From contig OZ244160.1 of the NCBI GenBank assembly GCA_965216325.1, forward strand, positions 1,696,001-1,760,000: a stretch of DNA of 64,000 bases, read 5' to 3'. Source of the stretch: Coraliomargarita sp. Its GTDB lineage: Bacteria; Verrucomicrobiota; Verrucomicrobiia; Opitutales; Coraliomargaritaceae. The first letter of the stretch is position 1. Each line of letters begins with the position of its first letter. Below, in pieces: positions 3,061 to 14,389 of the stretch. Below the pieces are notes generated by a model. The model did not search any database and was not told the origin of the DNA. It was given only the letters and a program-made list of their open reading frames with translations. The position numbers were made by a program, and so were the translations under genes.

Positions 3061-4029
3061 ATGGACCTACTCCTTCAGAATATACTCTCACCCGTCGTGC
3101 TCGCCTTCGTCCTCGGGATGTCGGCTCACTGGGTGAAGAGTGACCTAGAAATTCCGGATGCCATCTACCAGGCACTCTCGATCTATCTTCTCTTTGCAAT
3201 TGGTCTAAAAGGGGGTGTCGCCCTAGCTGAAACCCCACTGTCACAGCTGGTGGCACCTCTCGGGGTCACGCTACTGTTGGGGATCCTCACACCAATAACC
3301 GCCTTTTTCGCCCTCAAAGCAATCGGACGACTCGACCGCACCAACGCCGCTGCGACAGCCGCACACTACGGCTCAGTCTCCGCCGTAACCTTCCTCGCCG
3401 CAATCGAGGCCTCCAAAGTTGCCAACATCCCTGCCGACGGCTACATGCCTGCACTGGTTGCGGTGCTTGAGGTGCCCGGCATTGTTGTTGGACTCCTCTT
3501 TGCACGCCAAAAAAGCTCGAGTCGCGGTGGCATGAAAGAAGCTGTCCACGATGTCATCTTTGGCAAAAGCATTTTCCTCCTGATTGGCGGCATGGCCATC
3601 GGAGCGCTCTGCGGCCCCGTGAAAGTCGCCGCGGTCGCGCCCTTCTTCATTGATCCGTTCAAGGGCGTGCTCTGCCTCTTCCTCTTGGAACTCGGCATGG
3701 TCGCTGCCCGACGAATCGCGGACGTGCACAAGGCTGGCTGGCGTATCATCGTCCTCGGCTGCCTACTCCCACTCGTGCACGGCATGCTCGGCACCTTCGC
3801 AGGCACCCTAGCAGGCATGACCCCCGGAGGTGCGGCCGTGCTCGGCGCCATGACGGGTAGTGCCTCCTACATCGCGGCACCTGCCGCCGTCCGTATCGCA
3901 CTGCCTAAAGCCAGCCCTGGCATTTACCTGACCATGGCACTCGGCATCACCTTTCCATTCAATCTAGCGATCGGCATCCCACTCCTGCTTGCCTTCGCGA
4001 AATACTGCGCTCAAATGTTCGGCGCATAA
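3061..4029 (+). CDS. sbtA: Sodium-dependent bicarbonate transporter family permease (SbtA/DUF897)
   Basis: Polytopic membrane protein with SIYLLFAIGLKGG, AAHYGSVSAVTF, SASYIAAPAA, LGITFPFN motifs. Confidence 0.9.
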   Translation: MDLLLQNILSPVVLAFVLGMSAHWVKSDLEIPDAIYQALSIYLLFAIGLKGGVALAETPLSQLVAPLGVTLLLGILTPITAFFALKAIGRLDRTNAAATAAHYGSVSAVTFLAAIEASKVANIPADGYMPALVAVLEVPGIVVGLLFARQKSSSRGGMKEAVHDVIFGKSIFLLIGGMAIGALCGPVKVAAVAPFFIDPFKGVLCLFLLELGMVAARRIADVHKAGWRIIVLGCLLPLVHGMLGTFAGTLAGMTPGGAAVLGAMTGSASYIAAPAAVRIALPKASPGIYLTMALGITFPFNLAIGIPLLLAFAKYCAQMFGA

Positions 4030-4039
4030 AGATCCAGCT

Positions 4040-4345
4040 ATGAAAGTCACCTTAACCAAGATCACCATCATCACCGAAAGTCTGCTCACGGACCACATTC
4101 TTGAGCTGATCAAAGAGCATGGTGGAACTGGCCACACCCTGACCAAAGTCGAGGGCGAAGGCTCCAGAGGCACGCACGCCAGCGACTGGGAGGGCCGAAA
4201 CACCAAGATCGAGACCATCGTCACCGCCGAAGACGCGGACACCATTCTCGACCTACTCAACGAGCGCTATTTTGAAGACTACGCGATCATCGCATGGCTC
4301 TCCGAGGTGCAAGTGCTTCGTAGCAAAAAATTCGTGGGCCATTAA
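4040..4345 (+). CDS. sbtB: PII-like regulator SbtB
   Basis: 101 aa, ITIITESLL..GHTLTKVEGEGSRG..KIETIV..VLRSKKF; directly after sbtA; start moved to ATG 4040. Confidence 0.85.
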   Translation: MKVTLTKITIITESLLTDHILELIKEHGGTGHTLTKVEGEGSRGTHASDWEGRNTKIETIVTAEDADTILDLLNERYFEDYAIIAWLSEVQVLRSKKFVGH

Positions 4346-4387
4346 GAACCCATTCGCTAAGCATCTAACTGCCCGTTAGAGATTTCA

Positions 4388-4416
4388 GGGTCGCCTTCAT
4401 CGAGGGCGGCCTTTTT
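4388..4416 (+). terminator. Terminator-like hairpin between sbtB and carbonic anhydrase
   Basis: ggtcgcctt-N-gagggcggcc followed by ttttt. Confidence 0.6.
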
Positions 4417-4425
4417 CATGATGCA

Positions 4426-5025
4426 ATGCCTACCCTGTCTAAGCTACTCCAGCGCAACCGCGAATGGGCGGCACGCATGAGCGAAGAAGACCCCACTTTC
4501 TTTGAAGAGCTGGAAAAGGAACAGCACCCAAATTATCTGTGGATCGGCTGCGCGGATAGCCGGGTCCCCAGCAGTCAGATCATGGGCTTAAAGCCGGGTG
4601 AAGTCTTCGTTCACCGCAATATTGCCAACATGGTGCTGCATACCGACTTTAACATGCTTTCGGTGCTTCAATATGCCGTCGACGTTTTGAAGGTGGAACA
4701 CGTGATTGTCGCAGGTCATTACGGCTGCGGCGGTGTCCGAGCGGCGATGAAAGATCAACACTTTGGACTGATCGACAATTGGCTACAAAACATTCAGGAC
4801 GTCGAAAGCATTCACCTTGAAGAACTTACTGCACTAGATGAGCAGGCACGCTTCGACCGCATGTGCGAGCTCAACGTTCTCCACCAAGTCGACAACCTAC
4901 GCCGCAGCCCAATCATTCAAGACGCGTGGGCGCGCGGTCAGCATGTGGAACTTCACAGTTGGGTCTACAACCTAAAAGACGGCCACCTGACCCCACTCCA
5001 AGACGTGATCAGCCACAACGACTAG
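4426..5025 (+). CDS. can: Beta-class carbonic anhydrase
   Basis: WIGCADSRVP, FVHRNIAN, GHYGCGG zinc-ligand motifs. Confidence 0.95.
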   Translation: MPTLSKLLQRNREWAARMSEEDPTFFEELEKEQHPNYLWIGCADSRVPSSQIMGLKPGEVFVHRNIANMVLHTDFNMLSVLQYAVDVLKVEHVIVAGHYGCGGVRAAMKDQHFGLIDNWLQNIQDVESIHLEELTALDEQARFDRMCELNVLHQVDNLRRSPIIQDAWARGQHVELHSWVYNLKDGHLTPLQDVISHND

Positions 5026-5783: not shown

Positions 5784-6782
5784 ATGGACCCTCTCACACA
5801 GGCCACCCTCGGCGCAGCAGCCGCAGCCGTCGTCAGTCGCCCCAGCTCGGTGCGGCGCGCACTGCTGATTGGTGCCGTAGCAGGAGCCGCACCGGATCTG
5901 GATGTGTTTATTATATCCGGTGAGGATCCACTGCTGAACCTGCAGTATCACCGTCATTTCACCCATGCGTTGCTTTTTGCACCGGTGATCGGGCTGCTCG
6001 TTGCAGCACTGTTCAAAGGTCTGTTCTACCTGCGCAACTGGCCCTTCCGCGAACTCCTGCTGTTCGCAAATCTGGGCGCACTGTCCCACGGCCTACTGGA
6101 TGCCTGCACCAGCTATGGCACCATGCTCTACCTGCCCTTCAGTGGTCACCGCGAATCGTGGGATCTGATTTCGATCATCGATCCAATCTTCACCGTGCCG
6201 CTCGTGCTGCTTTGTCTCGCGGGCTTCATTGCCAGCAAGCCACGCCTCATCCGAATCGGCATGTGTTTGTGCCTGATGTATCTAAGCTTCGGATACATCC
6301 AACGTGAACGCGCCCGTAGCTATGCGCTAGAACTCGCAACTAGCCGCGGACTCTCCGTCGAGTCCGTCACAGCACGTCCCTCCTTTGCCAATACCATCCT
6401 CTGGCGCATCATCGTTCGCAGCAAAGACAGCTACACCGTCGACGCAGTGTGGCTGATGCCCTTCCAAGAGCCAACACTCTACAGCGGCGCAACCGTTCCC
6501 ATGCCAGATCTCGACAAGCTAGCACAAGACGGGAGCCAGCAAGCCGACGACATTGCCCGCTTTGATCACTTTTCACAGGGCTACCTCTACGAAGTGCCCG
6601 GCAAAGAGCACGTGCTCGGTGACTTGCGCTACGCACTCTTTCCCAATTCGGTCGAGCCCCTGTGGGGCATTCGGCTGAACCCTAAAACTCCAGACGCACA
6701 CATCGAAATGGTCCATTTTCGCGAGCCCTCCAAAGCGGCATTCACCAAACTCTGGGCGATGATCTGCGGTAAGGAATCGTAG
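5784..6782 (+). CDS. Metal-dependent hydrolase, inner membrane (YdjM-like)
   Basis: MDPLTQ..LG, PDLD, HRHFTH, SHGLLDACTSYG motifs plus TM helices. Confidence 0.85.
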   Translation: MDPLTQATLGAAAAAVVSRPSSVRRALLIGAVAGAAPDLDVFIISGEDPLLNLQYHRHFTHALLFAPVIGLLVAALFKGLFYLRNWPFRELLLFANLGALSHGLLDACTSYGTMLYLPFSGHRESWDLISIIDPIFTVPLVLLCLAGFIASKPRLIRIGMCLCLMYLSFGYIQRERARSYALELATSRGLSVESVTARPSFANTILWRIIVRSKDSYTVDAVWLMPFQEPTLYSGATVPMPDLDKLAQDGSQQADDIARFDHFSQGYLYEVPGKEHVLGDLRYALFPNSVEPLWGIRLNPKTPDAHIEMVHFREPSKAAFTKLWAMICGKES

Positions 6783-6975: not shown

Positions 6976-8940
6976 ATGCCACTTCCGAAATCGAAATCTC
7001 ATAACTCGCTCCGCCGCATGAAGGTAGGGATTAAGCGCTTCCTCAACACGGTTGACGAAATGCGCGCCTCGATTCAAGGCGATGACTATGAGGACGAGGA
7101 ATACGAAGAATACGAAGAATACGACGACGAATTCGAAGCATGCGACGATACAGAGGAAGCTGAAGACGAGGAGCTGCCGGAAGAAATTGTCGAGGACACC
7201 CGTCGCGAAGAAGAAGCCCTTGCCACCGAACAAGCGGAGCTAAACGGCTGGCGTCAGGAGCTCGGCATGCTCCTCAAAGAACGCGAGGAGCGCGGCGAGT
7301 ATTTCCGCAATTATTTCGCTGAGAGCCAGCAACGCTATCAGCGCATGCTGCAAAACGCGCGCGATCAGCTCGCCGGCATCGAATCACGTGGCGACGAGGC
7401 CACACCAGCACAAGCCCTCGATCATGAGCTCAACGCACCGGCCGAGCCGGAACCAGAGCCAGTGCCGGAACCAATCGACAATCCGGACATCGAGCTTTAC
7501 ACACGCCCGAGCCTGAGCTTGCTCGAAGCGGCCGACCTCAGCAAGACCGTGCTCATGGAGCCGGAAGCCCTGGAGGCGCAGAAGAATTCGTTGCAAGAGA
7601 CCATGGATAGCTTCGCAGTCGATGCCTACGTCTACGATGCCATTCTCGGGCCACGCATCACACAGTTCCGCGTGCAGCCCGGTATGGGCGTGCGCGTTGA
7701 ATCCATCGCCGGCCTGCAAAAGAACATCGCACTGGCACTGGCTACCACCAACATCCGCGTGCAGGCACCAATTCCTGGCGAACCCTTCGTGGGCATTGAA
7801 GTTGGCAACGCTAACTCCGTGCCGATCCACCTTCGCTCAATGCTCGAGTCCCGCGCCTGGCGCGAATCCGAGATGGAGATCCCGCTGGTGCTCGGCATGG
7901 ACATTCAGGGCAAGATCATGCTCGCCGACCTCGCCAAAGCTCCACACCTGCTAATCGCTGGCGCCACGGGCAGCGGTAAGTCCGTCTGTATGAGTAACCT
8001 CATCCTCAGCCTACTCTACAAGTTCCGCCCGGATGAACTGGAGTTGGTGCTGATTGACCCGAAGCGCGTTGAATTTGGACTCTTCAAAGAGATCCCGCAC
8101 CTAATTCACTCGGTGGTGACAGAGCCCAAACCGGCCGTGCAGATCCTGAAGTGGGTGGTCGCCGAAATGGAGCGCCGCTACCAAGTGCTGGCGGACAAAC
8201 AGGTGCGCAACCTCGCTGGTTACAACGACAAGGCCGAGGCCGAGGGCTTCAAGAAGATGCCGTATCAGGTGGTCATCATCGATGAGCTTGCCGACCTCAT
8301 GATGACGTCCAAGGGAGAGGCCGAAGCCGCCCTCGCCCGTATCGCCCAACTTTCCCGCGCAGTTGGCATCCACACCATCATTGCGACTCAGCGCCCAAGC
8401 GTGAACGTCCTGACCGGTGTGATTAAAGCCAACTATCCGACCCGCATTGCCTTCCAGGTATCCTCACAAGTCGACTCACGCACCATCCTCGACTGCAAGG
8501 GTGCTGAGAGCCTCCTCGGACAAGGCGACATGTTATTCAACCCGCCGGGCATCGCACGACTCATCCGTATCCAGAGCCCATTGGTGCATGACCACGAGAT
8601 ACGCAACGTCGTCGACAATCTCGCCGCCCAACGTCAGGCCGAGCACCGCGTCGACCTCAGCAGCATTCCAGCAAGCGGCAACGACCAGTCCGGCAGCCAA
8701 CTCGATATCGATGGCATTGAAGGCGAAGACGACGAAGCACTGCTGAAGAAGGCCCTGCTCACCGTCGCCGAAACCCAAAAGGCCAGCACCAGTTTCCTAC
8801 AACGTCGTCTGCGTATCGGTTACAACCGCGCGGCGCTCCTCATCGAAGAACTCGAAGACCGCATGTATATCGGGCCGCAAAACGGCTCCACCCCACGTGA
8901 GGTCTTCATCACACCGGAGGAAATCGAATGGGCCAAATAA
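6976..8940 (+). CDS. ftsK: FtsK/SpoIIIE-family DNA translocase lacking the N-terminal membrane domain
   Basis: PHLLIAGATGSGKS (Walker A), IIDELADLMM (Walker B), ATQRPS, GAESLLGQGDML, gamma domain ASTSFLQRRLRIGYNRAA; N-terminus is acidic and helical with no hydrophobic segment. Confidence 0.9.
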   Translation: MPLPKSKSHNSLRRMKVGIKRFLNTVDEMRASIQGDDYEDEEYEEYEEYDDEFEACDDTEEAEDEELPEEIVEDTRREEEALATEQAELNGWRQELGMLLKEREERGEYFRNYFAESQQRYQRMLQNARDQLAGIESRGDEATPAQALDHELNAPAEPEPEPVPEPIDNPDIELYTRPSLSLLEAADLSKTVLMEPEALEAQKNSLQETMDSFAVDAYVYDAILGPRITQFRVQPGMGVRVESIAGLQKNIALALATTNIRVQAPIPGEPFVGIEVGNANSVPIHLRSMLESRAWRESEMEIPLVLGMDIQGKIMLADLAKAPHLLIAGATGSGKSVCMSNLILSLLYKFRPDELELVLIDPKRVEFGLFKEIPHLIHSVVTEPKPAVQILKWVVAEMERRYQVLADKQVRNLAGYNDKAEAEGFKKMPYQVVIIDELADLMMTSKGEAEAALARIAQLSRAVGIHTIIATQRPSVNVLTGVIKANYPTRIAFQVSSQVDSRTILDCKGAESLLGQGDMLFNPPGIARLIRIQSPLVHDHEIRNVVDNLAAQRQAEHRVDLSSIPASGNDQSGSQLDIDGIEGEDDEALLKKALLTVAETQKASTSFLQRRLRIGYNRAALLIEELEDRMYIGPQNGSTPREVFITPEEIEWAK

Positions 8941-10424
8941 AGACCTGCGACGACTTGATCGAACAGATCGAAGCACTTGGGATCGAGGGCACCGTGAAGG
9001 CCTATCGCAAGCCACCGCTGCACACGCGTATCCTGCGCGACCTTTACGAGCTCTACATCGACGTGCCCAAATACGTCGAGTTCCTCGCTCACTATCCGCT
9101 GATTCCATCCGACCTCGCAGAGCGCATCGCGCAAGAGATCGATCCCGAACTCGTCGGCATCGCACATGGCCTTGCAGGCAACCCGCGCAGTTCGCAACAG
9201 ACACTCAATCGCCTCACCAAGCACGAGAACGTCGACGTGCGTCTTGAGCTCGCAGCCAACCCGAACCTGACACCAAAGGAATTCCAAGCCATGGTGCAGG
9301 ATGAGTCGGCCTATGTACGCGCCGCGATTGCCAAGAATCCATCGCTGCCGAACTCCCTGCAATTCATCCTCGCCGATGATACTGAAGCGATCGTGCTAAT
9401 TGCGCTCAGCTCCCGCAAAACCTTGGACATGGATATCGCGGTCCAACTGGGCACGCACAGCGATCCACTCGTGCGCGCCGCAATCGTCAACCAGTGGTCG
9501 CAAGATCCGGAAGTGCTGCAGATGTGGGCGGACCTCGACGAACCGCACAACCAGCAGTTCCTCCTTCAGCGTAGCGGCAAACTCGAAGCTTCAGCCATCG
9601 AGGCGCTCAGCTATGCTCAGGATTCTGAAGTCCGCACCGTCGCACACGCGCAACAGAATCTGAGCGGCCCACTGATGCTCTGGCTCGCCGAGTCCGACTA
9701 CACAGAGGACCGTGTTGCGCTCGCGGAGCGCCCCAACTTGCCGAACAGCATTCAGCGCATTCTCGCACAAGACAGCTCGCCCAAAGTGCGCCGCCGCCTT
9801 GCTGCCAACTCGGACCTCGCGCCATCCCTAGCACTACACATCGCCACTTCAAGCGACTTACAAGCCTGCCGCGCACTGGCGAAGAACCCAGCAATCGACT
9901 TCGAGTGCCTGAGCGAACTCTGCCTACATTCAGACGACAACATCGCTCTACTCGTTGCTTACCGCGACGACCTCAGCGAGCAACACCTCGACCTGCTCAT
10001 CAACCATCGCCTCAGCAGCACAGTCGCGGAGCACCTGGCGTATCAGGATTTTGAATACAAAAATATTCAAGCTGACCCCGTCGCCGCACTAGCAGGTAGT
10101 GACGCACCAAGTTTACGTGTTTTCGCTGCGCGTTCCGCGCACGGCGAAGATTGGTGCTTCAAGCAACTCGCAAGCGACCCCGTCCACGCCGTCCGCTTTG
10201 CACTCGCTAAAAACTCACACGCGCCGGAATCCTGCCTCAAGCAGCTCATGGAAGATGCCGACCGCGGGATCGTTTTTGCCGCCGAAGAAACCTTGAATCG
10301 CCGCAACCGCATCACCGCATCCGAATCGAAGAACGATGAAGATGAATACGACGCGTATGACGAAGAGGAGACCTACGAACGCGGCAGCACGCTGAAACGG
10401 ATCCTTAACTTTTTCACTGAATAA
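8928..10424 (+). CDS. Helical-repeat (LRV/HEAT-like) protein
   Basis: Recurring ~24-aa units: VRLELAANPNL, VRAAIAKNPSL, RVALAERPNL, VRRRLAANSDL, CRALAKNPAI, VRFALAKNSHA; overlaps the ftsK stop. Confidence 0.8.
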   Translation: MGQIKTCDDLIEQIEALGIEGTVKAYRKPPLHTRILRDLYELYIDVPKYVEFLAHYPLIPSDLAERIAQEIDPELVGIAHGLAGNPRSSQQTLNRLTKHENVDVRLELAANPNLTPKEFQAMVQDESAYVRAAIAKNPSLPNSLQFILADDTEAIVLIALSSRKTLDMDIAVQLGTHSDPLVRAAIVNQWSQDPEVLQMWADLDEPHNQQFLLQRSGKLEASAIEALSYAQDSEVRTVAHAQQNLSGPLMLWLAESDYTEDRVALAERPNLPNSIQRILAQDSSPKVRRRLAANSDLAPSLALHIATSSDLQACRALAKNPAIDFECLSELCLHSDDNIALLVAYRDDLSEQHLDLLINHRLSSTVAEHLAYQDFEYKNIQADPVAALAGSDAPSLRVFAARSAHGEDWCFKQLASDPVHAVRFALAKNSHAPESCLKQLMEDADRGIVFAAEETLNRRNRITASESKNDEDEYDAYDEEETYERGSTLKRILNFFTE

Positions 10425-10437
10425 CCACTTTCAACAA

Positions 10438-10462
10438 CGGGCGCGTCAAGTCGCGCCCCTAC
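10438..10462 (-). repeat. Single GTAG REP, family B
   Basis: Exact reverse complement of 5645-5669. Confidence 0.75.
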
Positions 10463-10481
10463 AACTTACAACGCACCTATC

Positions 10482-10889
10482 ATGGCTAAGAAAAATGCAA
10501 AACTGATACCGCTGACCTTGCAGGAGATCATTCTCCGAGGTGATGCGGAGACCATCCGCCAAGCACTCGAAGCACGCACTCAAATCGACACCCTGCTGGA
10601 AGAGCGCGAAGCGGCATATCGCCGCATCAGCGAACTCGAAGAACAAGTCGAAGGCATCGTCGGCGAAGAAGGCGTCTTCCCATTCCCGGAGCCACCGGTT
10701 CCCGTGGCAGCCTTCGACACCAAGGCGGCGGCCAAGAAGAAGCCAGCGCCAAAGCCAGTCGAGGAAGCTCCAGTAGAAGCTGAAGCAGAAGTAGCAACTA
10801 AGGAAGCCCCTGTCGCGGACAGTGACGAAAACGCTCCAGCTACTGAAGCCGAAACCGACGAAGCTACAGAGGAAAACAAAGACGCGTAA
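10482..10889 (+). CDS. Hypothetical coiled-coil protein with Lys/Ala then acidic low-complexity tail
   Basis: ATG start, host-like codon pattern, heptad-like helix then FPFP motif; paralogous to the next gene. Confidence 0.75.
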   Translation: MAKKNAKLIPLTLQEIILRGDAETIRQALEARTQIDTLLEEREAAYRRISELEEQVEGIVGEEGVFPFPEPPVPVAAFDTKAAAKKKPAPKPVEEAPVEAEAEVATKEAPVADSDENAPATEAETDEATEENKDA

Positions 10890-10975
10890 TTCAGTTTCAG
10901 GAGCTGACGTTTCCAGAGCCAAGCAACGGGCAACTGAAAACCAGCAACTGAAAACTGCACGCGCAGCGTGCCCCC

Positions 10976-11386
10976 ATGTCGATCTCTACCGAAGAGCTCA
11001 TTGCCATCAACGGCCTTCTCATAGAACGAGAAGTGGCCTTTGCGCGCGTGGGCAGTATCGAGCAATCGATCAACGAGCTCCTCGGAGGCGACTACCCCTT
11101 CCCCGCGCCGGAGGCGATCCCGCCTTCCACCCAAAAGCGCAAGACCAAGAAAAAAGCTGCCAGGGCCGCAAAACCAAAAGGCCCGCCGAAGCTACGCAGA
11201 TTACGCAGCCCCGAGGTCGCTTACCGTATACACACTATCGAGCAGGGCCAACCACAACAGCGCGAAGCAACCGACCTCAAGCCGCTCGAAGCAATCATCA
11301 AAGGCACCATTACAGGCATACGCCTGAGCAAAGTCGAAACCCTCAACAGCAGCGGTGAAGCAGTTGAGGTAATCTATCAAGGGTAG
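10976..11386 (+). CDS. Hypothetical protein, paralog of 10482, with basic linker and small C-terminal domain
   Basis: LLIEREVAFARVGSIEQSINELLGGDYPFP aligns with LLEEREAAYRRISELEEQVEGIVGEEGVFPFP. Confidence 0.75.
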   Translation: MSISTEELIAINGLLIEREVAFARVGSIEQSINELLGGDYPFPAPEAIPPSTQKRKTKKKAARAAKPKGPPKLRRLRSPEVAYRIHTIEQGQPQQREATDLKPLEAIIKGTITGIRLSKVETLNSSGEAVEVIYQG

Positions 11387-12679: not shown

Positions 12680-14389
12680 TTAGTTCTCTCTGACCTGATA
12701 AAATTGCTTCGCACGTAGCCCCTGTGGGTCTGCTACTGGATGATCCAGACCATCCCCGGCAAGCTGCGCAATACAGATCCAAGGGCCCGCCGGAGAATCA
12801 CTGCTCCAAACTGAATATAGCGTCTCTACTTCGGTGTTAAAAGTGAGTGTGGGTGTAGTTCCATTTTCAATATCGATGACCGAGAATTTGGAACTACCAA
12901 TCGTTTGATCTGTAGTCACGGCAAACTGCCCAAACACGTCAGTTTGTAGACTCAACCATTCGCCACCATAGGTAAAATCGGAGACTTCATTCCAAGAACT
13001 TCCTCCATCGCTAGAGCGCCACACTTTTAAATGATCCTCGCTAAAACCGGCACCAAGCTGAAACGAAAGTGTCGCAGTGGAATTTTCTAAATCAGTCGAA
13101 ACTTCATATGCAAGTAATGCCAGCTCACCATTAATCGGCCCAGTCGCAGTGAGTTCGGTTGAATTAATCGAAGCCACTCCGGCATCGCTAGAGAAACTAA
13201 TATCTAATGAATCGCCTCCCTCGATAGACGTTGCAGATATCGATGCGGATTTCAGACCGCTATCTTCTTCGATCGCAGTTGAAAAGCTCGACCGGAAACT
13301 AGGCCTCGACCAAGACCAACGCCTCCAAGGGGGGCGCCTCCAGCGATAACGCTGACCACTCAAATCCTGATCACTCACGGGAGCAGAAACTACGACTGGA
13401 GCGGGCACAGTAAACTCTCCTAAACTCCAAGTGCCACCCTGCGCGCTATAACGACTTGAACCTATAATAAGAAGCTGCCCTACAGAAATCGGAGTATAGG
13501 TGCCTGCTTCCAGATTTGGCTCAGCAATGAAATGAACCTCTCCATCAACTATAAATGACCGTCCAGCCGTCACCATATTCTCCTGTCCCACATGTAGATT
13601 GAGCGTATCGACAACCCGAACATCTCCATCTGTAGTTAGCGTAGCACCATTCTTTAACGTGGTCGTGCCTCTAACATAAACATCTGCATCAGAAGTAATC
13701 GCGCCAAAATCAGTTGCTTCAACCTCGCCTCTCAACTCCAAAGAGGAGGCCTTAAGGCTGGATCCTGCACCCGAGACTCGAATCGAACTCCCCTCGAACA
13801 ACTCCAAACGATTATTCGACTCGAAACCGCCACCCTCTTCGATTTTCAGTTTCCCTCGGCCTGTCCGATAGGCTCCAACCAAAGTAGCCTGACCGCCAAC
13901 TGTCATCATAGAACCACTACCCGTAATAAGGACTTCGCCGTCACCATCGCCAGATCCATAGACGCCGCCGATGTGAACTAGGGGCAATAAGTCCGCGAAA
14001 CTGCCACTTTGCGTAGTGACGTGACCACCATTTGTAATTCTAAGCACCCCAGAGCCATTGCCATGGCCAAGATGAAAGTCGCCGCGATTGAAATATGCAG
14101 AGCCACTACCATCGACATGAAATGTGCTATTTGCATTGAAGCCGATGCTTGTCCCTGCCCGCCAACCATCAATGCTTTGCCAGTCTATCATGTTCACCGT
14201 GCAACCATTCTCAATTTTCAGAGAACTCACCGGACCATGAAGATTCAATCGAGGAGTTAAGCCCCCAATAGTCCAAGCCGTGACATCTGCGGGCGGCTGA
14301 GGGATTACATTTCCAGTTGCAGTAAAGTCCGCAAGAACAGTTCCTCCGAAACTGAGTGCAATGATTAGAGATGCTAGAGCTACACGCAT
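12680..14389 (-). CDS. Secreted beta-helix/passenger-like protein (T5SS/PEP-CTERM-associated-type repeats) with PVC-type C-terminal domain
   Basis: Signal peptide; repeats such as VDGSGSAY, LGHGNGSGVLRITNGG, ITGSGSMM, VSGAGSSL; C-terminus YSVWSSDS..W..GDG..FYQV. Confidence 0.7.
   Translation of the reverse strand: MRVALASLIIALSFGGTVLADFTATGNVIPQPPADVTAWTIGGLTPRLNLHGPVSSLKIENGCTVNMIDWQSIDGWRAGTSIGFNANSTFHVDGSGSAYFNRGDFHLGHGNGSGVLRITNGGHVTTQSGSFADLLPLVHIGGVYGSGDGDGEVLITGSGSMMTVGGQATLVGAYRTGRGKLKIEEGGGFESNNRLELFEGSSIRVSGAGSSLKASSLELRGEVEATDFGAITSDADVYVRGTTTLKNGATLTTDGDVRVVDTLNLHVGQENMVTAGRSFIVDGEVHFIAEPNLEAGTYTPISVGQLLIIGSSRYSAQGGTWSLGEFTVPAPVVVSAPVSDQDLSGQRYRWRRPPWRRWSWSRPSFRSSFSTAIEEDSGLKSASISATSIEGGDSLDISFSSDAGVASINSTELTATGPINGELALLAYEVSTDLENSTATLSFQLGAGFSEDHLKVWRSSDGGSSWNEVSDFTYGGEWLSLQTDVFGQFAVTTDQTIGSSKFSVIDIENGTTPTLTFNTEVETLYSVWSSDSPAGPWICIAQLAGDGLDHPVADPQGLRAKQFYQVREN

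Follow-up and report, generated by a model that had tools for sequence, protein, structure and literature searches.

The 64,000-nucleotide stretch analyzed here, from contig OZ244160.1 of a marine Coraliomargarita sp. (hereafter the window) carries, at positions 6976-11386 of its + strand, four co-oriented open reading frames (ORFs), namely ftsK2, LRV, S1, and S2. The first encodes a second FtsK translocase lacking a membrane domain, and the three others encode an LRV-repeat protein and two small paralogous proteins. Conservation and linkage of the four genes are established, FtsK2 retains every feature of the motor and gamma domain, and a canonical FtsK with transmembrane (TM) segments coexists with it. 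With moderate confidence, we propose that these genes constitute a conserved, chromosomally inherited module of Verrucomicrobiota, in which an SftA-like accessory chromosome translocase is positioned by a peripheral adaptor composed of LRV, S2, and S1.

The conserved linkage of the four genes suggests that a chromosome-moving motor has an adaptor complex not described so far. The initial annotation of the window was aware of no described operon with this set of partners, and our full-text literature search, limited to searchable papers, likewise found no description of an FtsK2-LRV-S1-S2 module. Cell division in the Planctomycetes-Verrucomicrobia-Chlamydiae (PVC) superphylum is still poorly understood. 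In the excerpts available from published work, FtsK is reported to be one of a small number of genes linked to division that are conserved throughout the superphylum (PMC12283558, PMC5147048), and ftsK is treated as a single gene in the species tabulated or discussed (PMC12283558, PMC5147048, PMC6952346).

LRV (8928..10424, +) starts before the stop of ftsK2 (6976..8940, +), and is followed by S1 (10482..10889, +) and S2 (10976..11386, +). The ORF list confirms these coordinates, and with them the initial description of four co-oriented genes with a 13-nt overlap (8928-8940) between the first two. This overlap is kept in most Puniceicoccaceae loci, and most ftsK2-LRV junctions show either the 13-nt overlap or gaps of a few nucleotides.

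FtsK2, a second FtsK with a full motor

FtsK2 is 654 residues long and carries the three domains of an FtsK motor. Pfam searches identified FtsK_alpha (PF17854, residues 178-278, E = 2.1e-25) and the RecA-like beta ATPase FtsK_SpoIIIE (PF01580, residues 286-476, E = 4.5e-61), which together span positions 7507..8403 (+), as well as the winged-helix FtsK_gamma domain (PF09397, residues 585-646, E = 8.6e-25; 8728..8913, +). The structure of Pseudomonas aeruginosa FtsK (2IUT) aligns to all three domains (E = 8e-115), the Walker A motif reads GATGSGKS, and a VVIIDELADL stretch is aligned with the Walker B region of 2IUT. All features defining the FtsK/SpoIIIE family (a beta domain with Walker A and B motifs, alpha, and gamma) are thus found in FtsK2, in agreement with the complete motor initially annotated. 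FtsK2 shares these domains with canonical FtsK of the Escherichia coli or P. aeruginosa type, but the N-terminal domain of about four TM segments that characterizes the divisome protein is replaced by a cationic helix, an acidic stretch, and a charged helix. A Kyte-Doolittle scan (TM-like segments being 19-residue windows with a mean of at least 1.6) detected no hydrophobic segment in FtsK2. The same scan found none in 28 of 29 short FtsKs, and three to six in each of the 39 canonical FtsKs (FtsK1) of Opitutales. As the gene upstream of ftsK2, which ends at position 6782, encodes an unrelated YdjM-family protein, no lost membrane domain is hidden upstream.

The N-terminal region of FtsK2 comprises three blocks. 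Residues 9-30 (7000..7065, +; SLRRMKxGxxRF/L...) form a conserved cationic amphipathic helix, with a hydrophobic moment of 0.55-0.78, a net charge of +1 to +4, and residues S11, L12, M15, G18, and R21 invariant in an alignment of 12 orthologues. Similar N-terminal motifs occur in other families, and the helix may have a role in membrane binding or docking. An acidic stretch follows (residues 35-75; 7078..7200, +), with 26 Asp/Glu and no Lys/Arg among 41 residues, which bears out the acidic N-terminus reported in place of the four-TM anchor; its length differs among orthologues. Finally, residues 76-135 (7201..7380, +) form a charged helix block (..WRxELxxLLKxREER..YF..RYQRML..) conserved in 12 Puniceicoccaceae orthologues, in which a motif of the type W/L-R-x-x-F/L-x-x-R-x-x-x-R is also recognizable in the TM-less FtsKs of other families. 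We also considered homology between the N-terminal helix and the helix of S1 or S2, and rejected it (hhalign probabilities of only 0.6% and 0.2%).

The gamma domain of FtsK2 is 59% identical to that of the canonical FtsK of the same genome. The recognition-helix stretch ASTS.LQRRLRIGYNRAA is the same in both proteins save for the wildcard residue (F in FtsK2, M in FtsK1), suggesting, by extension from known FtsK gamma domains, that FtsK2 reads the same chromosomal polarity signals as FtsK1.

The genome consists of a single 3.06-Mb contig, of which the window covers bases 1,696,001-1,760,000, and in which a second strong FtsK_SpoIIIE match is located about 69 kb from ftsK2. This match belongs to an 877-aa gene with four hydrophobic N-terminal segments, FtsK1. 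A separate four-TM ftsK, whose presence the initial annotation had proposed to check, therefore exists, and FtsK2 is a paralogue rather than a 5'-truncated pseudogene of the only copy, which was one of the outcomes that would have overturned the proposal. The motor of FtsK2 is 43-48% identical to each of the 39 Opitutales FtsK1 motors. Between genera, FtsK2 motors are 80-85% identical and the N-terminal blocks are also conserved; judged by these values, FtsK2 is under strong constraint. In a quick maximum-likelihood tree of 80 FtsK motors, Opitutales FtsK1 sequences form one group (Shimodaira-Hasegawa-like approximate likelihood ratio test, SH-aLRT, 100). Opitutales FtsK2 sequences and those of two other families form a clade (support of 99), around which a broader group (100) includes long TM FtsKs from other classes as well. 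Within the core FtsK2 clade, sequences sort by taxonomic family. An approximately unbiased (AU) test, its groups defined with the tree already in view, rejects a single clade of Opitutales FtsK1 and FtsK2 (cost of 217.8 log-likelihood units, p-AU = 9e-6). Given these identities, the tree, and the AU test, FtsK2 is by sequence of old origin, as a paralogue or through a transfer within the phylum, and not a recent duplicate.

GC skew is an ambiguous guide to the position of the locus relative to the replication origin and terminus. The turning points of the cumulative skew, near 1.096 Mb and 1.803 Mb, are separated by only 0.7 Mb of the 3.06-Mb genome; the sole Bac_DnaA match, at 0.867 Mb, lies at neither turning point, and the canonical ftsK is about 30 kb from the 1.803-Mb one. 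Very unequal replichores might explain such spacing, as might a large inversion or an assembly issue.

The closest functional parallel is SftA of Bacillus subtilis, a soluble, septum-associated FtsK-like translocase found beside the membrane-bound SpoIIIE (PMC5357621). Like FtsK2, SftA is a TM-less translocase of the FtsK family coexisting with a membrane-anchored paralogue, and its gamma domain is thought to read chromosome polarity motifs (PMC5357621). In contrast, the available part of that source has SftA recruited via the FtsZ ring and mentions no dedicated operon partners (PMC5357621), whereas FtsK2 has three conserved, co-encoded partners. Moreover, SftA belongs to Firmicutes and FtsK2 to Verrucomicrobiota, and the likeness is one of function, drawn from descriptions rather than from sequence comparison.

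Distribution and linkage of the four genes

The closest public records to the locus are Coraliomargarita metagenome-assembled genomes (MAGs) from the Puniceicoccaceae (Opitutales). Among 41 related genomes, eight contain a full-length LRV homologue (one further, weak repeat-level match was left out). Exactly these eight genomes show two FtsK_SpoIIIE matches; the other 33 have one, of the long form. The order FtsK2-LRV-S1-S2 is kept in all seven relatives whose loci were fetched. Similarly, FtsK2 and LRV are adjacent in all 16 named loci of the species collection (six of which are on the same contigs as among the seven relatives), with S1 present in 15 and S2 in 14, the misses corresponding to contig ends. 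According to the names in public records, cultured Coraliomargarita, Lentimonas, and Pelagicoccus strains carry the four-gene module.

For a wider view, 301 genomes sampled across the phylum as defined in GTDB were scanned with the FtsK2 motor and an S1 profile. Identity of the short-frame FtsKs to the FtsK2 motor is 80-84% within its own family. It falls to 61-64% in three further families of Opitutales and does not exceed 56-57% in families belonging to other classes. Among 20 loci around short FtsKs in the phylum, LRV and S1 adjoin FtsK in 16 and S2 does so in 15; in three of the four remaining genomes, S1 and S2 are located elsewhere. No further conserved neighbor beyond the four genes was detected at these loci. 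The S1 profile matches 32 of the 301 genomes, and LRV, S1, and S2 stand together in the nine additional S1 loci, as in every locus examined. A TM-less FtsK adjoins this trio in 20 of the 32 S1-positive genomes. In five others, a TM-less or nearly TM-less FtsK is encoded away from the trio (G190 being ambiguous). In the last seven (six of a single genus, plus one), the only FtsK is a TM one; the ORF after it is FtsK-like but degenerate, carries a fused PRA-PH domain, and shows no Walker A motif on reading the sequence. Conversely, 22 of the 24 short-frame FtsKs among the matches listed lie in S1-positive genomes. LRV-S1-S2 is thus the invariant core, and a soluble FtsK its usual but not obligatory companion. 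The partners accordingly co-occur with the FtsK2 clade across several families and classes, so that the lack of such co-occurrence, which would have spoken against the initial proposal, was not observed. In the ESM Atlas, S1- and S2-like clusters are found in Verrucomicrobiota, all named 'hypothetical protein', and those of Lentisphaerota (scores of 0.86-0.88) are leads only.

Several loci depart from the common arrangement. ftsK2 is divergent from LRV-S1-S2 in loci L090 (genome G184) and L100 (G192), and about 1.3 kb separate ftsK2 from LRV in L092 (G278). In the lineage without FtsK2, the conserved neighbors of the trio are TsaD, a response regulator, and AzlC. Genomes G111, G225, G140, and G326 carry LRV-S1-S2 and no soluble FtsK with alpha, beta, and gamma domains. 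In G111, a 584-aa ORF directly downstream of the canonical TM ftsK (L126, 4689-6443) combines an FtsK alpha domain with a partial FtsK_SpoIIIE domain, carries a PRA-PH (HisE-like) domain at its C-terminus, and shows no Walker A motif on reading the sequence; the arrangement is repeated in the three other genomes. This ORF may be a degenerate FtsK paralogue. In an Opitutaceae BACL24 MAG (L035, 6001-7214), LRV is matched by two overlapping pieces (query residues 1-120 and 115-405) and no intact ORF was found, which could result from a frameshift or an assembly error. Yoonia is an alphaproteobacterial genus, and a 7.9-kb contig labeled as a Yoonia sp. MAG (L027, JBLHPJ010000141.1) carries the module at about 70% (FtsK2) and 53% (LRV) identity to that of the window; it is likely a Puniceicoccaceae contig that contaminated the bin. 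In the family labeled f1, module-bearing genomes measure 2.1-4.6 Mb (median of about 3.4) vs. 1.4-3.6 Mb (median of about 1.9) for those without it. This suggests loss of the module during genome streamlining, the comparison being descriptive, as the genomes are related and not independent.

FtsK-like ATPases occur in defense systems, and the initial annotation had raised the possibility that the four genes protect the host. Under this hypothesis, the module would be an anti-phage or anti-plasmid system built on an FtsK/HerA-type motor, as its patchy distribution among genomes and the matches of the FtsK2 motor to the PADLOC models SspH (E = 1e-69) and mads_8 (E = 6e-34) might suggest. However, the PADLOC matches (SspH, mads_8, HerA) cover only the shared motor, and the partners match no PADLOC or PHROG model. 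The gamma domain is intact, with a recognition-helix stretch one residue away from that of the host FtsK1, sequence conservation between genera is high, and the core FtsK2 clade follows taxonomic families. In addition, the flanking genes are housekeeping ones (SbtA, P-II, carbonic anhydrase, PpnP, and YdjM) and differ from genus to genus. Finally, no orthologues of the module were detected in 72,556 plasmid and 50,697 phage records; a tblastn search with LRV returned 10 plasmid records with generic repeat similarity (23-26% identity) and no phage record. The searches of partners, plasmids, phages, and flanks thus lend no support to a defense function, which we regard as very unlikely.

FtsK-family motors also drive TraB conjugation in Streptomyces. 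That the module acts in DNA transfer or uptake, as a conjugation-like or TraB-like motor exporting or importing double-stranded DNA, might be read from a weak match to the NCBIfam model plasmid_TraB, which reaches 56.5 bits against a cut-off of 800. Yet the hydropathy scan detected no membrane-spanning segment in FtsK2, S1, or S2, nor in 26 of 28 LRV orthologues. Neither mobile-element genes in the flanks nor plasmid orthologues were found, and the context is chromosomal, stable, and single-copy. We consider such a device highly improbable, even more so than a defense system.

The partner proteins and a model of their complex

Ausmees et al. reportedly found in 2007 that SmeA targets the FtsK-like protein SffA. 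The two Streptomyces genes are adjacent, and encode a small membrane protein and a weakly FtsK-like protein, both targeted to the septum (PMC4255298, as excerpted). They provide a looser precedent for an additional FtsK-like gene located beside a partner gene (PMC4255298, as excerpted). Nevertheless, SmeA is an integral membrane protein whereas LRV, S1, and S2 have no predicted TM segment, FtsK2 has a full motor where SffA is just 'weakly FtsK-like', and there is one partner instead of three.

The LRV protein is 498 residues long and is predicted to be an alpha-solenoid. It matches the LRV repeat family (PF01816) with 41.2 bits, above the cut-off of 21.6, while LRV_2, HEAT, and DUF2336 remain below their cut-offs; the LRV part of the former 'LRV/HEAT-like' description is therefore firm and the HEAT part sub-threshold. 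The 82 homologues found are all unnamed. After an acidic linker, residues 486-498 (10383..10421, +; TLKRILNFFTE) form a C-terminal amphipathic helix, in which I492, F495, and F496 are invariant in eight orthologues. More broadly, LRV proteins end with a linker and a cationic amphipathic helix (e.g., ..LKRILNFF or ..LRRLIRKV); in 24 of 28 orthologues, the hydrophobic moment of the C-terminal 11-residue window is 0.60-0.84 and ranks in the 97th percentile of the protein or higher. This helix presumably recalls the membrane-targeting sequences of MinD and FtsA. The likeness, a terminal cationic amphipathic helix after a flexible linker in these 24 orthologues, comes from the hydrophobic-moment calculation only; it differs in that the LRV helix contacts protein in the complex model described below, and its binding to membranes is at most predicted. 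The 19-residue scan detected no TM-like segment in 26 of 28 LRV, 25 of 25 S1, and 25 of 25 S2 orthologues.

S1 (135 aa) has a very conserved core (residues 1-76) ending with FPFPxPPxPVA, followed by a Lys/Pro/Ala patch and an acidic tail. S2 (136 aa) comprises a helix (residues 5-36), a YPF motif, a basic linker (residues 46-78), and a C-terminal domain (residues 79-136). The homology of these two proteins of about 135 aa, already noted in the initial annotation, is clear from BLASTP (41% identity over 37 residues, E = 1e-7) and from the comparison of their family alignments with hhalign (probability of 97.3%, E = 1.9e-11, 62 columns). Neither has a match in Pfam, NCBIfam, PADLOC, or PHROGs; as for LRV, it belongs to no PADLOC or PHROG family, and to no Pfam family beyond the LRV repeats, and NCBIfam yielded no usable match for it. 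The match to the SpbR family (NCBIfam NF052659) amounts to 25.8 bits against a cut-off of 400. There are 419 S1 homologues at E<=0.001, and the best 120 of these 419 are all named 'hypothetical' or 'uncharacterized'. In databases, the partners bear 'hypothetical' or repeat labels, and FtsK2 is annotated as 'DNA translocase FtsK'.

An AlphaFold2 model of S2 built from 25 sequences (mean predicted local distance difference test, pLDDT, of 81.8) shows a long helix at residues 5-36 and a small beta-beta-alpha-beta-beta domain at residues 79-136. The linker in between is disordered and contains 13 Lys/Arg among 33 residues. This model supersedes a poor single-sequence one (pLDDT of 56.6). Foldseek returned no clear structural neighbor of S2 (best match at E = 0.12). 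With VIA-align, the best matches were fibronectin type III domains (Z = 5.7, root-mean-square deviation of 3.5-8.8 A over 64-80 residues); as this Z value is within the common range of the tool, we draw no conclusion on the fold.

Modeling of LRV with S1 (residues 1-80) and S2, in three runs with controls, supports binding of LRV to both S2 and S1. The model passed the ipSAE mark, with 0.75 in the three runs vs. 0.00 for the best control. This mark is reached by 116 of 157 solved complexes and by two of 215 mismatched pairs, a calibration that holds only roughly for a job with custom alignments and three chains. At least 93% of contacts are shared between runs, the pLDDT of the partners is at least 87, and the score is lost once S2 is replaced. 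The modeled S2 helix is placed on LRV residues 341-421, and the C-terminal domain of S2 on LRV residues 102-238. S1 contacts LRV solely via its residues 65-73 (the FPFPxPP motif), and LRV residues 488-496 are also within the interface.

These elements can be assembled into a possible mechanism. FtsK2 hexamers would pump the host chromosome directionally, guided by the polarity motifs of FtsK1. Their position would be set by the adaptor instead of TM helices, gene linkage leading us to infer that the partners recruit FtsK2. S2 would run along the LRV solenoid, with the S2 helix placed on the C-terminal half of LRV and the small S2 domain on the N-terminal half, and S1 would touch LRV through its FPFPxPP motif. 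Through their cationic amphipathic helices, the adaptor and the N-terminal helix of FtsK2 could attach peripherally to the membrane or division site, while disordered segments, Lys-rich or acidic, in S1, S2, and the N-terminus of FtsK2 may mediate DNA or mutual contacts. A more integrated version, which we advance tentatively and with more doubt than confidence, is that FtsK2, LRV, S1, and S2 build one peripheral-membrane machine. The solenoid clamped by S2 and S1 would then replace the TM domain and couple a pump reading KOPS to the membrane or division site by amphipathic helices, and histone-tail-like segments of S1 and S2 would hold DNA or hand it over. If true, this would be a lineage-wide, previously unseen deployment of FtsK in Verrucomicrobiota and Lentisphaerota.

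Several observations weigh against a translocase positioned by this adaptor. The FtsK2-adaptor link is drawn from gene order and co-occurrence. The seven S1-positive genomes (out of 32) with only a TM FtsK and a degenerate FtsK-like ORF indicate that the adaptor can exist without a soluble FtsK, and one S1-negative genome (G327) has a TM-less FtsK. The module is patchily distributed (seven of 24 genomes of the family) and hence dispensable. Four of 28 LRV orthologues lack the C-terminal amphipathic helix, and the location of this helix in the modeled protein interface competes with its reading as a membrane anchor. Lastly, the LRV residues in the modeled interface show no excess of conservation over the remainder of the protein (0.42 vs. 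0.49, in a comparison that includes the buried core), and conservation thus brings no independent support to the model.

Part of these data would suit a trio that works on its own. LRV, S1, and S2 could form an independent nucleoid- or membrane-associated complex, for example one organizing DNA by the Lys-rich tails of S1 and S2, that cooperates loosely with any FtsK, TM or soluble, FtsK2 being a frequent neighbor rather than a bound subunit. The three genes of the trio always remain together, the trio alone yields a confident complex model, FtsK is unlinked in five of the S1-positive genomes and its soluble form absent in seven, and the S2 linker, rich in Lys/Arg, as well as the Lys/Pro/Ala patch of S1, fit such a role. 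A loose association fits less well with the 20 S1-positive genomes, from several families and classes, in which a TM-less FtsK adjoins the trio, frames often overlapping or abutting, or with the fact that nearly all the short-frame FtsKs among the matches listed (22 of 24) lie in S1-positive genomes. We find an independent trio unlikely, albeit the most serious of the alternatives considered here.

If the preferred reading of an accessory translocase positioned by the adaptor is correct, an anchor-less FtsK with its own adaptor would represent a way of deploying a DNA pump unlike that of model organisms, and three families of 'hypothetical' proteins (419 homologues for S1 alone) would gain a function. 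The module also lends itself, as a natural system, to studies of the targeting of a soluble translocase. As it consists of only four genes and has cultured carriers, pull-downs, localization, and knock-outs are feasible.

Surroundings of the locus

A scan of the stretch returned no promoter-like site (2.0 expected) and 10 terminator-like sites (6.5 expected). Upstream of the module, positions 3061-5025 contain three co-oriented genes encoding an Sbt_1 Na+-dependent bicarbonate transporter (E = 1e-110), a P-II-like protein, and a beta-carbonic anhydrase, the start of the P-II-like gene overlapping the end of the Sbt_1 gene. This trio looks like an SbtA/SbtB-type inorganic-carbon uptake cassette, here in a heterotrophic Verrucomicrobium. 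Downstream, a 569-aa ORF on the opposite strand (12680-14389, -) shows no Pfam match at E<=0.001; it begins with a signal-peptide-like sequence and lies within a stretch of lower GC content (0.44-0.50 vs. 0.55-0.59 around it).

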